64,000 bases of DNA, from NCBI GenBank assembly GCA_964634595.1, contig CAZWKU010000001.1, positions 3,688-67,687 on the forward strand. Direction: 5' to 3'. The stretch comes from an uncultured Candidatus Saccharibacteria bacterium. Lineage in GTDB: Bacteria; Patescibacteriota; Minisyncoccia; Phycocordibacterales; Phycocordibacteraceae. A program made the position numbers and the translations under genes. The notes under the pieces are model-generated. The model saw only the letters and a list, made by a program, of their open reading frames with translations, had not been told where the DNA came from and did no database searches. How positions within the stretch are numbered: position 1 is the first letter of the stretch; each line of letters starts with the position of its first letter. Positions 10,193 to 38,732 of this stretch are shown here, piece after piece.

Positions 10193-11171
10193 CCGAGTAC
10201 AGGTCGTCACCCTCAGGTGCCGCTGGTTTCGAATCGACGTGCGTCGTATTGGGGAAGACGGGTGGCGGCACCTCGGTAGTGTTTGGGCTGTTACCGCCAA
10301 GGTAAACTTGGGGCGACTCACTTGCCTGCTCGAGAGCCTCGCGCGCGGCGAGCGAAGACACGAGCACTGACAGATCTTCGGGCGAAAAGAAGTCGATCAT
10401 CAACCGACCACCCTGCTCATTTGCCTCGATAATGACGCGCGTGCCAAGTGTCTCGGTCAATGTTTTTTCTATTTCGCTCATTTCGGGGCTTTTACGGTGA
10501 TGCTTGCGCACACGATCTTGGGCGATAGATCGAGCTATCTGTTCGGCAGCACGCACCGTCATCTTTTTAAGCACAATTTCTCTAAAGAGCGTCTCCCGCT
10601 GTTCGGGCTTTTCATTAAGCGCTAAGAGAGCGCGCGCGTGACCCTCGGTCACCTCTTTATCAACAATCGCCTGTTGCATATACTCAGGCAAGGAGAGTAG
10701 TCGCACACTGTTTGAGACAAACTCACGGCTCTTCCCTATCTTTGCCGCCACTTGCGCGTGGGTGAGACCAAACTCCTTGATAAGTTGTTCGAGCGCTTTG
10801 GCGCGATCGACTGCATTTAGGTCTTCACGCTGCAAATTTTCAATAATCGCGAGCTCGAGCTTGGTGAGATTGTTCTCGCCTTGGCGAATAACTGCCGGTA
10901 TAGCCTGCAGGCCAATTAATTTGCACGCGCGGAGCCTTCGTTCACCCGAGATCAGCTCGTACTCACTCCCCAGACCCCCGTCTGGCTTTTGCACGTCACT
11001 ACGGGTCACTACGATGGGCTGCAAGACGCCGTACTGGCGTATCGACTCACCCAAGGCGCGCAATTTATCATTATCGAACTCGCGCCGTGGCTGGTAGGGG
11101 TTTGGCTTAATCTTGTCGACCTCGATCCAAAAAATCGAGTCGTATTTGGTGGGTACATACGTATCGCTCAT
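10173..11171 (-). CDS. parB: chromosome partitioning protein ParB/Spo0J
   Basis: ParB box (LQPIVV...ISGERRLRACKL) and an HTH. Confidence 0.9.
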   Translation of the reverse strand: MSDTYVPTKYDSIFWIEVDKIKPNPYQPRREFDNDKLRALGESIRQYGVLQPIVVTRSDVQKPDGGLGSEYELISGERRLRACKLIGLQAIPAVIRQGENNLTKLELAIIENLQREDLNAVDRAKALEQLIKEFGLTHAQVAAKIGKSREFVSNSVRLLSLPEYMQQAIVDKEVTEGHARALLALNEKPEQRETLFREIVLKKMTVRAAEQIARSIAQDRVRKHHRKSPEMSEIEKTLTETLGTRVIIEANEQGGRLMIDFFSPEDLSVLVSSLAAREALEQASESPQVYLGGNSPNTTEVPPPVFPNTTHVDSKPAAPEGDDLYSVKNFVV

Positions 11172-11390
11172 GAAAAATATATTACCACGTGTCAGGGAGA
11201 GACATGGTCACGCATAAACACTGCTGTGTTTTGCGCGACCCCGGCTCGGCATCGCTTTGCGATATGCCTGCGCTATTCAAGTCTCTCACGCACCATGCGC
11301 AGGCATGGTGCTCCCCGGCACAGCGTTCACTTTGCTCACGTCTGTGCCGGGGGAGTTCGTCTTCGAAAGAACTTTATACAGACGCACTAG

Positions 11391-11473
11391 GACAGATACA
11401 GAATCGAAATGGTCAGAATTTTCCCGCGCGGCGGCTACCGCCGCGTAGAGGGGATGCGCCGTGCCAGAGACTT
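11391..11473. repeat. left arm of long inverted repeat (83-bp core, outer end GACAGATACAGAATCG)
   Basis: Reverse complement of 13478-13560 with 4 mismatches. Degenerate similarity continues inward to about 11555. Confidence 0.85.
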
Positions 11474-11644
11474 TAGTTCGAGAATACAAACCCAAACCCA
11501 AAGATTTTTTGAAGAAAAGAGAAGCGAATTTTTTGGCGGGGAGAGAGGGGAATACCTGAAGCCCGTAGTGTGCTTGCCCCACCCTCCGTGCGCGCACCAG
11601 CCCCTTCGCCGAGCTTTGGTTCTCGTCGAAGCTCCCTAAAATTT

Positions 11645-12181
11645 CTATCCTCTCTTTTTCCGACTGCCGTTACCTGCCTTTCTTTGGGCTTTCATTTGAG
11701 CGAGTATATTATCTCGTCGAATATCGGCGACATAATCAATTTCTGTTAAGGACGGGATACGGAAGCTCATCACCGTGCAATCATTGCGACTGGTGATCAC
11801 AAAGTCGCCGAGCGTGATGATGTCCATGCCGATAAGCACATCAATCGGGGAGTCGTCCCCCAAATTTCCTTCCGTTACCACTACATTCTGAACCATTACG
11901 TTGCTCGGCAGGGCGACGTTGACGAGATAGGTATCTTTGATGTCGCTACCATTTGCCGTGTTCACTTTCTTTTTGCCCGTGGGTTTCAAACCGAGATGGG
12001 CAACCACTTTAGGAGTGATGACCGAGCCGGTTGCGCCGGTATCCCAAATGCCCTTGAATGTCCCAATGACGAGATCTTTCTGATCTCGTATATCGCCTAA
12101 AAACGGCATGCAAATACCGACTTCACTTTGTAGAACGAGTAATTTCCCATTCTGGCCTCGTATTGTTAAGGCACTCGGCAT
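11645..12181 (-). CDS. retropepsin-like (clan AA) aspartic protease, module copy 1
   Basis: 178 aa. Active-site block KGIWDTGATGSVIT and a downstream hydrophobic-Gly motif (VLIGMDIITLGDFVI), typical of single-domain retropepsin-like proteases. Confidence 0.65.
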   Translation of the reverse strand: MPSALTIRGQNGKLLVLQSEVGICMPFLGDIRDQKDLVIGTFKGIWDTGATGSVITPKVVAHLGLKPTGKKKVNTANGSDIKDTYLVNVALPSNVMVQNVVVTEGNLGDDSPIDVLIGMDIITLGDFVITSRNDCTVMSFRIPSLTEIDYVADIRRDNILAQMKAQRKAGNGSRKKRG

Positions 12182-12190
12182 AGAAGGAAA

Positions 12191-12436
12191 TTAGATAGAC
12201 ACTCGAGAATAGAATGTCTGGGTGTAGTTTTCTGCTCCGGGCTCGACGCGCTGAATAAGGAATGTACCGAGCTCGTTATCTTTCTGCGCCCCCTCGTATG
12301 CCTCAATCTCTGAATCGTATGAGCCGATGACTTGCTGATTTTTTATCACCACAAATTTCCCTTCGTATTTCGCAACGAGTTCTTTTTGATGTGTGGTGTA
12401 GTATTCGAACTCCTTTGTGAGGGGGTCAGAAGCCAT
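12191..12436 (-). CDS. small partner protein of the aspartic-protease module (copy 1), hypothetical
   Basis: 81 aa, 10 nt upstream of and co-oriented with the protease. Homologous to 45809-46012 (KFVVIKNQQVIGSYD...TFLIQRVEPGAENY vs KWVALSKDNKKVIAYD...TFMKVPASDVY). Confidence 0.5.
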   Translation of the reverse strand: MASDPLTKEFEYYTTHQKELVAKYEGKFVVIKNQQVIGSYDSEIEAYEGAQKDNELGTFLIQRVEPGAENYTQTFYSRVSI

Positions 12437-12522
12437 ATACAGGTAACTATATCATAGTGGGTATTAGAGAACCACACGCGCCATAGTCGGGCTGTATACT
12501 GTCGTTATGCGATATTTTCTCT

Positions 12523-13480
12523 ATGCGCGCAAAAGCGCGACAAGGGCATTTCCCCGGCACTGCGCCATTTGGGTATTTGAATAATCCAGCGACTAAAACT
12601 ATCGTGGTTGATCGCAAAAAAGCTCCTATCGTTAAAGCCGCCTTCGAGCTCTACTCTAAAAACGATTCGACCTTAGACGACATCTCTCAATTTCTTTTTA
12701 ACGGCGGCGTCAAAAGCTATGGCGGCTTTGCTCTCCATAAAAACCGCATCAAGTTCGTTCTCGCCAATCCATTTTATTATGGGCAGTTTTTGTATGGTGG
12801 TGAATTGTATGAAGGAAAGCATTTGCCACTCATCACCAAGGCTTTGTTCGATAAAGTGCAAAAGGTGATGCTTGAGCGAAGCCATCCGCAAGTCTTTAAA
12901 GTACAACCTCAAGCATTTTGCGGCCTCATGTTTTGTGGAGAGTGCGGTTTTATGATTACCGCCGAGAAACAAAAAGGGCATGTGTACTATCGCTGTACCA
13001 AAAAAGCGGCGCTTCGCTGTTCACAACGCTATACCCGTGAAGAACAACTCGCCGCCGATTTTTCCGACCTCATTAGTATGTTTGTCCTGTCCGAGAAATG
13101 GGCACGAGATTTTGAGCATCGTATGAAAATTGATAGTCGCGAGTCCGGTCGGACGACTGCCGAGGCAGTCGCAAGGTTCAGGAGTGAGATAGTGGAGATA
13201 GGCCAGAAGCTCGATCGTCTTATGGATCTCTATATTTCGCAGGATATTGAGCGCGACTTGTATTTGGCAAAACGTCGCGCGCTTATGTCCGACAAGCGGA
13301 CGAAGGAGGAGCAAATCTTGAGTTTGGAGAAGAACAGCTCTGCATGGCTCGAACCGATGTCCAGGTGGATAAATGAGGCAGAAAATCTAGCCCAAATACA
13401 AAATGCCCCCTCTCTCCCCGCCAAAAAATCCGCCCTTCAAAAAATCTTCGGCTCGAACCTGAAACTCCAAAACCAAAAAG
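12523..13480 (+). pseudogene. large serine recombinase remnant with the N-terminal resolvase catalytic domain missing
   Basis: Begins inside the alpha-E linker (RAKARQGHFPGTAPFGY), then the recombinase domain, a zinc ribbon (CGECG...YYRC...C) and a coiled coil. Only 86 bp lie upstream before the divergent gene, so there is no room for a catalytic domain. The listed ORF reads on through the repeat and tRNA by chance. Confidence 0.85.
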
Positions 13481-13560
13481 TCTCTGGCACGGCGCATCCA
13501 CTCTACGCGGCGGTAGCCGCCGCGCGGGAAAATCCCGACCATCTCGATTCTGTATCTGTC
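13478..13560. repeat. right arm of long inverted repeat, abutting the 3' end of tRNA-Leu(CAA)
   Basis: 95% identical (79/83) to the reverse complement of 11391-11473. Contains the hairpins CGCGGCGG-tag-CCGCCGCG and CGGGA-aaa-TCCCG. Confidence 0.85.
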
Positions 13561-13561
13561 G

Positions 13562-13645
13562 TGGTGCCGGGGGAGAGACTTGAACTCTCAAGACTTGCGT
13601 CGGTGGGTTTTGAATCCACTGCGTTTACCATTTCGCCACCCCGGC
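13562..13645 (-). tRNA. tRNA-Leu (anticodon CAA), class II
   Basis: Minus-strand sequence GCCGGGGTGGCGAAATGGTAAACGCAGTGGATTCAAAACCCAC...GAGAGTTCAAGTCTCTCCCCCGGCACCA. Anticodon loop UUCAAAA, long variable arm, T-arm GAGAG/TTCAAGT/CTCTC. Confidence 0.8.
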
Positions 13646-13732
13646 AATATGCATATCCTACGCCAAAAACGGCTTTTTGAGAATTGTGTGAGCCGTGCTA
13701 CCTTGCACCCAGATCGAACAAGGAGAACTGTT

Positions 13733-14458
13733 GTGCTCACAAGAGAAAAAGTGATTCTTGCCCTTGACCACCCGACCCTAGACGAAGCACTTGCTTGTGC
13801 GAGGCTGTGCGCTAACTATGTGTACGGCTTTAAGCTTGAGCGCCTTCTGCTGTGTCGAGAGGGCCCGCGCGAAGCGATCCGAGCAGTAAAAGAAATTGGT
13901 GGGCACGTTGTGTTTGCGGACGCAAAAATACACACTATCCCGGACACTGCTGCGGCCATGGTCGTCAAGCTTGCAGGGTACGGTGCGGACATAATCAGCG
14001 CCCACGCCTCAGGTGGCGAGGCAATGCTTACAGCCTGCGTAAGCGCGTATGCGTCTATACCCCTCACGAAAACTGGTGGCATTGTGCCTATCACGCTATT
14101 GACCTCGATAGGGGCAGATGAATGCTACCGCATCTACCTGAGAGATAGGCCGAGAAACGTGGTCTTGCAATTCGCACAGCTGGCTGATCAAGTAGGGGCA
14201 TATGGCGTAGTTTGTTCCGGAGAAGAACTACTTGATCTTAAGGACAGATTCTTGGGTCAAAAACGGCTTGTTACCGGATTACGCTCACCAGGAGAACCTT
14301 CTCGTGATCAAATCCGTGTCGCAACCCCAGCACAGGCACTGACAAAAGGTGCTGACCTATTAATCATCGGGCGACAAATCACCACAAAAGGAGATCCGAG
14401 GTCTGCAATGACCGCACTCAACGACCAGCTCGAGCAAGCTCTTTCTACGCCCGGGTAG
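13733..14458 (+). CDS. pyrF: orotidine 5'-phosphate decarboxylase
   Basis: Contains ILALD and FADAKIHTIPDT (DxKxxDIPxT signature). AGGAGA RBS sits 6 nt before GTG 13733. The longer listed ORF starts at 13580, inside the tRNA. Confidence 0.8.
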   Translation: MLTREKVILALDHPTLDEALACARLCANYVYGFKLERLLLCREGPREAIRAVKEIGGHVVFADAKIHTIPDTAAAMVVKLAGYGADIISAHASGGEAMLTACVSAYASIPLTKTGGIVPITLLTSIGADECYRIYLRDRPRNVVLQFAQLADQVGAYGVVCSGEELLDLKDRFLGQKRLVTGLRSPGEPSRDQIRVATPAQALTKGADLLIIGRQITTKGDPRSAMTALNDQLEQALSTPG

Positions 14459-25313: not shown

Positions 25314-25405
25314 GCCAGGGTGATGGAATGGTAGACATAGAGGACTTAAAATCCTCCGAGGTCCTTAAAAGCCTCATGTGAGTTCGAGTCTCACCCCTGG
25401 TACCA
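25314..25405 (+). tRNA. tRNA-Leu (anticodon TAA), class II, CCA encoded
   Basis: GCCAGGG acceptor, anticodon stem GAGGA/TCCTC with loop CUUAAAA, long variable arm, T-arm GTGAG/TTCGAGT/CTCAC, ACCA end. Confidence 0.8.
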
Positions 25406-25414
25406 CACCAATTT

Positions 25415-25639
25415 ATGTTTTATGTCTATCTGTTAAAAAGCTTACGGGACGGTAATGCCTACATCGGCTCAACAGATAACTTACGGCGCCGATTAGCCGA
25501 GCATCAAAAAGGTCTAGTTGTCTCAACAAAACCGCGCAGGCCATTCTTTAAGAATCTGAAAGTAAAGTCGGACGTTGTCGGTAGTTTTTTGAAAGACCGC
25601 TCAAACTGCGGGGCGCACGAATACTGCATCGCTATTTAA
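25415..25639 (+). CDS. GIY-YIG nuclease domain protein (stand-alone)
   Basis: YVYLLKS...GNAYIGSTDNLRRRLAEH matches the GIY-YIG core. 74 aa. Confidence 0.6.
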   Translation: MFYVYLLKSLRDGNAYIGSTDNLRRRLAEHQKGLVVSTKPRRPFFKNLKVKSDVVGSFLKDRSNCGAHEYCIAI

Positions 25640-38637: not shown

Positions 38638-38732
38638 GGGAGGTTGGCAGAGAGGCTTAATGCACTCGTTTTCCAAACGAGCGGGTGACGATTAAAGAAA
38701 CCCCGCAGGTTCGAATCCTGTACCTCCCGCCA
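38638..38732 (+). tRNA. tRNA with a class-II (long variable arm) structure and G73, apparent anticodon UCC. Isotype unresolved.
   Basis: GGGAGGT acceptor pairs perfectly with ACCTCCC, then G, then CCA. 3-bp D-stem GCA/TGC. Anticodon stem CTCGT/ACGAG with loop UUUCCAA. 23-nt variable arm. T-arm GCAGG/TTCGAAT/CCTGT. Confidence 0.6.

Follow-up and report, generated by a model that had tools for sequence, protein, structure and literature searches.

A decayed large serine recombinase element at tRNA-Leu(CAA) in a Saccharibacteria genome, and a Patescibacteria element family with a putative second, inverted attachment site

The 64,000-nucleotide (nt) stretch analysed here (the window) is part of contig CAZWKU010000001.1 of an uncultured Candidatus Saccharibacteria bacterium. 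Between parB and pyrF it carries a mobile element that abuts tRNA-Leu(CAA) and that is made up of two long inverted repeats (the arms), the remnant of a large serine recombinase (LSR) gene and a small cargo operon. We found that this is a decayed member of a family of LSR elements, and that the LSR gene supplies both arms, one being its 3′ end and the other an inverted copy of this end. The features of the locus, in window coordinates, are the following.

11172..11383, plus strand: degenerate left module (LM), a non-coding spacer from the parB start codon to the left arm, assigned by comparison with the related locus L003 and others
11384..11550, plus strand: left arm, IR-L, an inverted, non-functional copy of the last ~55 LSR codons; it begins GCACTAG, equivalent to GCACCAC of the tRNA
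11286-11597, minus strand: open reading frame (ORF) across the left arm, encoding ..KVSGTAHPLYAAVAAARENSDHFDSVSV
11427..11445, no strand assigned: left-arm hairpin with a perfect 8-bp GC stem, CGCGGCGG-CTA-CCGCCGCG
11645..12181, minus strand: cargo, intact ORF for a retropepsin-like aspartic protease of 178 aa (Pfam Asp_protease_2 at 7e-11)
12191..12436, minus strand: cargo, intact ORF for a DUF5678 small protein of 81 aa (Pfam DUF5678 at 2.9e-6)
12507..12536, plus strand: surviving start of the LSR gene, the first 10 codons MRYFLYARKS with the catalytic-serine motif, out of frame with the rest
12523..13680, plus strand: LSR pseudogene remnant with Recombinase and zinc-ribbon domains and the C-terminal tail, reading through the tRNA
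13407..13567, plus strand: right arm, IR-R, formed by the LSR gene's 3′ coding end; the final 6 nt belong to the tRNA as its GCACCA end
13506..13524, no strand assigned: right-arm hairpin with a perfect 8-bp GC stem
13562-13645, minus strand: tRNA-Leu(CAA), the integration target (ARAGORN; Rfam tRNA at 56 bits)

An earlier reading of this DNA from its letters alone (the first-pass annotation) had reported 4 mismatches in 83 bp between the arms, and an exact recount of 11391-11473 against the reverse complement of 13478-13560 gave the same figure. The full ungapped repeat is 91 nt long, 11384-11474 against the reverse complement of 13477-13567, with 85/91 positions identical and 6 mismatches, and it takes in GCACTAG on the left and GCACCAC on the right, that is, the CACCA end of tRNA-Leu(CAA). 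The tRNA does lie at 13562-13645 on the minus strand as annotated; the repeat, which had been thought to stop 1 nt short of it, runs into the gene as far as 13567. Weaker similarity had been seen to continue inward, and BLAST extends it to 11550 and 13407 (162 nt, 80% identity, E = 1e-38), giving ~165 nt per arm, with 85/100 identical positions in the outer part and, as had been stated, two copies only in the 64-kb window. The right arm lies within the 3′ end of ORF 12523-13680, in keeping with the reported overlap, and encodes ..PSLPAKKSALQKIFGSNLKLQNQKVSGTAHPLYAAVAAAREN.., a C-terminal tail that is kept in full-length LSR homologues. The minus strand of the left arm carries the same peptide with indels, which identifies this arm as an inverted partial copy of the LSR 3′ end; the indels disrupt the frame, and nothing useful is encoded. 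Two GC-rich hairpins had been assigned to each arm: the perfect 8-bp hairpin is found in both, and the second, short one is intact in the right arm only. A check of the repeat for structured RNA gave little, since an Rfam search of the arms and left module passed only the tRNA (a 6S match, at 19 bits, fell below threshold) and the folding z-scores of the arms were modest, −1.5 to −2.7. Promoter and terminator counts in a scan of 11000-13800 were the same as in shuffled sequence.

The recombinase gene is damaged in a way that differs from the first description of it as decapitated. Pfam matched PF07508 (1.4e-12) and PF13408 (3.4e-9) to the window ORF and found no match to PF00239, the catalytic Resolvase domain. 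The ORF is 70–75% identical to homologues of 495–504 aa, and full-length homologues (495–564 aa) carry PF00239 as well. Window positions 12526-13568 align with 7421-8463 of L003, and comparison with an intact gene of 70% identity shows a loss of ~390 nt from the catalytic domain; this loss is internal, as the first 10 codons survive at 12507-12536 in another frame. Because PF00239 is missing, MRYFLYARKS is out of frame and full-length relatives keep the domain, the gene is best described as an LSR pseudogene. The deletion junction (12519-12531) lies within GCGCGCAAAAGCG, which can be read as YARKS or, in the other frame, as RAKA(R), and this double reading suggests that the deletion may have been mediated by microhomology. 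Run-on into the antisense tRNA (..APRVGFEPT..) is also seen in the homologue ORFs. The only intact reading frames of the window element are those of the cargo operon, in which the DUF5678 gene stands upstream of the protease gene. The protease has a weak match (8.6e-7) to the PADLOC candidate-defence component PDC-M08B and the DUF5678 protein has no PADLOC match; we regard the pair as a candidate defence or toxin-antitoxin module. An LSR without its catalytic domain and drifted arms at tRNA-Leu(CAA) bear out the early proposal of a decayed integrative element next to a tRNA.

To place the element, we searched species-representative genomes and recovered at least 582 related LSR genes, nearly all in metagenome-assembled genomes of Patescibacteria (the candidate phyla radiation, CPR). 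Eighty loci were fetched from this search and others through exact-protein look-ups (locus numbers carry the prefix L), and 81 were examined for an inverted copy. In 56 of the 81, which span several CPR lineages and come from different projects and assemblers, the last ~160 nt of the LSR gene recur upstream of it as an inverted copy (65–181 nt, 72–100% identity). The repeat has many counterparts outside the window, and in relatives it is not the cargo-less structural element flanking tRNA-Leu that had been raised as a possibility. The distance from left arm to LSR ranges from ~150 nt, in arm-bounded units of ~1.85 kb that hold the LSR alone (L027, L029, L045, L049, L081 and L082), up to ~6 kb. 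A minus-strand tRNA almost always adjoins the right arm, which covers the last ~5 nt of the tRNA; among the targets are tRNAs for Gln, Leu, Tyr, Val, Thr, Asn, Glu, Ile, Arg and Phe. Group I-like introns of 180–600 nt occur in the anticodon loop of several target tRNAs (L030, L039, L041, L048, L004, L015 and L009), and such genes are missed by standard ARAGORN settings. Cargo genes between left arm and LSR are almost always on the opposite strand and are mostly defence or toxin-antitoxin genes, as follows.

Relatives' cargo: Drt2 reverse transcriptase, HEPN_AbiU2, AbiEii, DUF4411 with Peptidase_M78, GajB-like helicase
Relatives' cargo: AAA_15/21 ATPases, ResIII with methylase, GmrSD with HNH, EcoRI methylase, KAP NTPase, DUF3800

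The relatives also revealed what lies beyond the left arm. Immediately outside it the family carries a conserved non-coding left module of ~150–350 nt that ends AAAATAGGTTCNAGC-N17-NNCCA and is common to elements at different tRNAs. The module imitates a tRNA 3′ end, with a T-loop-like GGTTCNAGC, ~17 nt and NNCCA. Its T-loop-like motif stands at −24/−23 from the arm and the T-loop of a true tRNA at −20/−19, so that the imitation is 4 bp further from the core than the real T-loop (25 of 29 loci). A degenerate tRNA with an intron was considered for the module and rejected, because relaxed ARAGORN settings find no tRNA and the imitation is confined to the T-loop-like motif and the NNCCA end. In L003, L005, L041, L045, L049 and L082 a second, inverted module copy (95–100% identical over 150–290 nt) lies 2.5–3.9 kb further out, and the intact layout reads host / inverted LM copy – segment B – LM / left arm – cargo and LSR (segment A) – right arm / tRNA, with a total element length of 4.5–7.6 kb in these six relatives. 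The first-pass annotation had treated the arms as the termini of a mobile unit; this does not stand, as the module, segment B (in at least six loci) and the inverted module copy all lie outside the left arm.

The junctions of the six relatives carry the argument for how such an element integrates. Written in one sense, the three junctions read module-core-arm, module′-core-host and tRNA-core-arm (module′ being the inverted copy), and their cores of 4–6 nt are GTACC, GAGC, CTCCA, TCACCA, TCAC and GTACCA. At the outermost ends the core forms a direct repeat, as in attL and attR, and what follows module′ is plausible host DNA: the next tRNA gene begins 18 nt away in L082, and L045 has a terminator hairpin there. 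These junctions are consistent with integration by recombination of an attP (module/arm) with an attB (tRNA/downstream), and in relatives the left arm and module together reproduce the attP as reconstructed from sequence. The internal module/left-arm junction is accordingly to be read as a putative second, intact attP-like site, inverted inside the element. The junctions inspected in detail were of the types module/arm, tRNA/arm and module/host, and we infer the fourth, tRNA/host; no arm/arm or tRNA/module joint was among them, and the loci were not screened for such joints. The bases just outside both arms showed no consistent target-site duplication in 16 loci, and a search at the far end of the module for the arm's outer 35 nt, expected there of a symmetric attP, gave noise-level matches only. 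Many of the MEGAHIT k141 contigs begin ~139 nt beyond the left arm, probably because the module is a repeat at whose end the assembly graph branches.

Some relatives show signs of serial occupancy. On the host side of the far junction in L041 (~880-925) there is an arm-like remnant, AAAGATAGGTCAGAATTT, and in L033 (4305-4530) the right arm adjoins a partial tRNA-Val 3′ half, with a complete tRNA-Val 150 nt beyond. L029 (9243-9310) has a second module end that belongs to a different subtype and faces the 5′ side of the occupied tRNA-Thr from ~700 nt away, which suggests another element next door.

In the window, the left module ends ..TTCGAaagaactttatacagacg, homologous to the family's AAAATAGGTTCGAGC-N17 tRNA-mimic end, and the attR (right arm/tRNA) is the only junction that can be recognised. 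Two 12-mers in the module match the 3′ part of tRNA-Leu(CAA) exactly and in opposite orientations (11276-11287, plus; 11344-11355, minus), and there is a 13-bp hairpin at 11311-11356. A palindrome, GCACCATGC-GCA-GGCATGGTGC, built around CACCA/TGGTG, occupies 11290-11311. The 12-mers and the palindrome may be scars of earlier recombination at tRNA-Leu(CAA). We considered GTGCCGGGGGAG, the match at 11344-11355, as a tRNA-derived direct-repeat attachment site; the 12-mer match is real, and we rejected the candidate because it lies inside the hairpin of a decayed module and resembles no junction type of the intact relatives.

Together, these observations make it probable that the window holds a dead LSR integrative element at the 3′ end of tRNA-Leu(CAA), whose arms are attachment-site halves and whose left side held an inverted second attP-like site. 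In this reading the 3′ end of the LSR gene would double as the element-side half (P′) of the attachment site, and the tRNA with the right arm would form attR, in which the T-loop and acceptor end of the tRNA supply the host-side arm. The left arm would be an inverted duplicate of the P′ half and, with the module, would make up a second, unrecombined attP-like site, of which the module and left arm of the window would be the remnant. In a free circle, segments A and B would then be divided by two attP sites in inverted orientation. Integration could use either attP, or the segments could flip, giving two orientations at the same tRNA; the attP left unused could react with another tRNA gene, so that segment A would form a bridge from one real tRNA to the other, and recombination between the repeats would keep the arms identical. 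The window element decayed through the ~390-nt deletion and frameshift in the LSR, followed by drift of the arms, and no segment B or far junction was found in it.

Several results weigh against this reading. The full two-segment layout was found in six or seven loci only, and no second module copy was found in the window or in ~10 relatives with 2.8–6.7 kb of left flank; the genes of segment B are ordinary-looking and could in principle be host DNA. The window module is too decayed for its parts to be assigned. Neither phage-borne relatives nor a free circular form turned up in a viral contig collection. The best PyrF identity in the database was 43% when we compared the parB to pyrF interval, which leaves the window organism without close relatives, and for this reason no orthologous empty site could be sought; a pattern of the reconstructed L082 attB (tRNA-Arg end, spacer and next tRNA) had 0 matches in metagenome contigs. 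Moreover, no LSR is known to recombine attP with attP or attR. For the latter reason LSR-driven flipping is put forward as a conjecture, to which homologous recombination is an alternative.

Comparison between loci showed segments bounded by these arms in different orientations and with different partners. At an orthologous, intron-containing tRNA-Thr locus, the element in L030 lies opposite to those in L039, L041 and L048, with the two orientations seen between genomes rather than within one population. Two inverted sites bracket a segment with the recombinase encoded within or beside it, as in an invertible segment, and the first-pass suggestion of a once-invertible segment was therefore a reasonable one. 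L085 and L086 encode an identical LSR protein and have right flanks 99.98% identical over 10.6 kb, with different left parts: module/arm and an AF_1680 cargo in L086, and in L085 a real tRNA-Ala adjoining a left arm of another subtype together with different cargo. The comparison of L085 with L086 and L087 points to a very recent cassette exchange or rearrangement between tRNA genes. The two arms of one element are also usually kept identical. Over the outer 100 nt, 28 of 44 elements have arms with 99% identity or more, where the nearest other element shares 44–97 of 100 positions; for the sister loci L045 and L049, identity is 84% between the loci and 100% within each. We tentatively propose, as a possibility that we hold well short of likely, that the second inverted site is no relic: forward attP × attB recombination would be carried out twice and without an excision factor, entering a tRNA site the first time and linking to another tRNA gene the second, and could give flips, relocations, swaps of defence cassettes between strains and chromosome rearrangements between tRNA genes. 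As the attachment arm sits in the coding tail of the LSR, with a conserved hairpin, the LSR C-terminus would change with each junction, and it might act as a sensor of the element's state.

The arms carry features that appear to be maintained as DNA. A perfect hairpin of 7–12 bp with a 3-nt loop lies ~42 nt from the outer end in 39 of 44 arms (further examples beyond the window are L048, L057, L063 and L071), whereas a hairpin of at least 7 bp arose in 1.3% of trials with shuffled sequence. Since the 39 hairpins have 29 different stems, the structure persists although both its sequence and the peptide encoded there differ between arms. A further hairpin, CGCGCGC-TTCG-GCGCGCG, is present in many arms near +80. 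KIFGSNL, an invariant peptide in the LSR 3′ ends of 39 loci (coded at 13444-13464 in the window), is almost always written AAA ATC TTC GGC TCG AAC CTS, with TCG used in 34/39 cases against a background of 0.16. With its codons near-invariant, the reverse strand carries a third T-loop-like motif, GGTTCGAGCC, ~105–115 nt from the core, and KIFGSNL / GGTTCGAGCC looks like a DNA-level site inside the LSR gene. The inner GGTTCGAGCC motif is split by a conserved 9–11-nt insertion in 24 of 44 left arms, and in left arms only; the insertion, AAAAATTCA or AGAAATACA, directly follows GGTTC (for example L010 3517-3525, L020 and L040). The subtype of the window, L001 and L003 has instead an 8-nt insertion, AAAAGAGA, near +131.

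Other histories can be written for the same repeats. The arms could be the terminal inverted repeats of a transposon-like unit running from arm to arm, which inserts between two facing tRNA-like 3′ ends and whose circle has a palindromic arm/arm joint, the module and segment B being a separate entity or a pre-existing target. The arm-bounded LSR-only units of ~1.85 kb fit this account, as do the many short contigs that span exactly arm to arm, the occurrence of the unit in both orientations and its position between two real, convergent tRNAs in L030 and L085. Yet the module travels with elements at different tRNAs, the junctions read in detail are all canonical, the outermost core is a direct repeat of the attL and attR kind, and the target-site duplication is missing; we judge this account unlikely. 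The LSR might alternatively serve primarily as a switch, flipping the segment to alter how the cargo or the LSR itself is expressed, for instance through its C-terminal tail, with mobility secondary. Two near-identical inverted sites, homogenised arms, both orientations at one host locus and an LSR ORF that crosses the core into whatever follows are all what such a switch would show. A flip, however, leaves the cargo, the LSR genes and their shared promoter region intact, with no obvious on/off logic, and the elements clearly move between tRNAs and lineages, while the two orientations are known across genomes rather than within a population. Known serine invertases, moreover, are small enzymes that need an enhancer, and a primary role in switching seems to us quite improbable.

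The left arm could also be the functionless leftover of a second recombinase copy, from an old inverted duplication or tandem insertion, and its position accidental; the window left arm, broken by indels, looks the part, and there are tRNA sites with tandem or serial occupancy (L033, L041). An accident of this sort is very hard to reconcile with the same arrangement in 56 of 81 loci, with outer ends of ~100 nt that, in 28 of 44 elements, match the functional arm at 99% identity or more despite strong differences between elements, and with the constant pairing of the arm with one conserved tRNA-mimic module at a fixed offset of 4 bp. Lastly, the inverted duplication could be a fold-back chimera of the assembly. 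The right arm, tRNA and pyrF are reproduced in two independent assemblies at 99.9–100% identity; the window left arm is seen in one assembly, and independent assemblies of the same organism break in or near the right arm. The arms nevertheless differ at 6/91 positions and by indels, which is not expected of a fold-back chimera, and as a general explanation such an artefact is ruled out because the same architecture recurs in dozens of unrelated assemblies; for the window itself we give it a negligible chance.

The favoured reading, of an LSR integrative element with a duplicated attachment half, sets the family beside known systems without matching any of them. The LSR elements and prophages phiC31, Bxb1, A118 and SPbeta (SprA) use the same class of enzyme, the family homologues having Resolvase, Recombinase and Zn_ribbon_recom domains with SPbeta SprA/YokA and the A118 integrase as nearest solved structures. 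Shared with these elements are the short common core, the attachment site beside the integrase gene, junctions consistent with attP × attB giving attL and attR, and an attP-type arm motif further from the core than the attB-type motif, as in the half-site spacing published for LSRs. The family is distant from known LSRs in sequence (E = 6e-12 against SprA; plasmid-borne LSR matches reach 30% identity at most) and, unlike them, it targets the 3′ ends of many different tRNA genes, has one attP arm that imitates a tRNA end and another that is the last ~55 integrase codons, and keeps a putative second, inverted attP-like site inside. Unlike LSR prophages it has no phage genes and no relatives in the viral collection, and no recognisable directionality factor was seen in the family elements.

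Tycheposons of Prochlorococcus are cargo-carrying elements at tRNA genes, with serial occupancy and decayed remnants beside the tRNA; most use tyrosine recombinases (an LSR is found in 27/937), and they have a full tRNA and a partial-tRNA direct repeat at their ends and often replication genes (bioRxiv 10.1101/2020.12.28.424599). The family shares their tRNA targeting and cargo carriage and differs in its core of 4–6 nt, its LSR, its conspicuous repeats, which are inverted, its tRNA-like module, which is an inverted imitation, and in that no replication genes were seen. In Tn4451 and Tn5397 (TnpX and TndX) and in IS607, a serine recombinase moves a small cargo unit through a circular intermediate; their end repeats are short and imperfect, their target is a GA dinucleotide or they lack target specificity, and they show neither tRNA targeting nor 160-nt arms overlapping the recombinase gene. 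The IS607 enzyme is a small serine recombinase with a different domain order. Given the tRNA targeting, long arms within the recombinase gene and arms that are not the element ends, we concur that the architecture fits no IS607, Tn4451 or phage layout.

By analogy, the inverted repeats of the yeast 2-micron plasmid and of plastids likewise pair two long repeats with two segments in either relative orientation and with concerted evolution. FLP, however, is a tyrosine recombinase and 2-micron a replicating plasmid, and the orientations of the family are known across genomes only. Hin, Gin and Pin resemble the family in having a serine recombinase gene beside a segment bracketed by inverted recombination sites; they are small invertases with ~26-bp sites and an enhancer bound by Fis, whereas the family has an LSR and ~160-nt arms and moves between tRNAs. 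A full-text literature search found no description of the architecture.

Elsewhere in the window, tRNA-Leu(TAA) at 25314-25420 is unoccupied, and the same tRNA is targeted by the LSR family at no fewer than 7 other loci. The gene at 25314-25420 ends in ..GGTACCA, with CACCAATTT and a GIY-YIG-like ORF (MFYVYLLKS..) directly after it. CCA is not encoded by most of the other tRNA genes in the window. The ARAGORN tRNA-Gly(TCC) at 38638-38732 is unusually long at 95 nt, possibly through an insertion or a miscall.

The family is apparently a widespread and undescribed small mobile element of CPR bacteria and a variant of the serine-integrase elements. Mobile elements of CPR/Patescibacteria are poorly charted, and this one is abundant, with at least 582 LSR matches. 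An arm that imitates a tRNA, an arm encoded within the integrase gene and a conserved second inverted site would each be new for serine integrases. These enzymes are widely used in genome engineering, and a clade that recognises the universally conserved T-loop and acceptor end of tRNAs could be of practical interest. The elements are compact (~2–8 kb) and each bring a single defence or toxin-antitoxin system to a tRNA site, and the family is likely a route by which reduced CPR genomes trade immunity genes.

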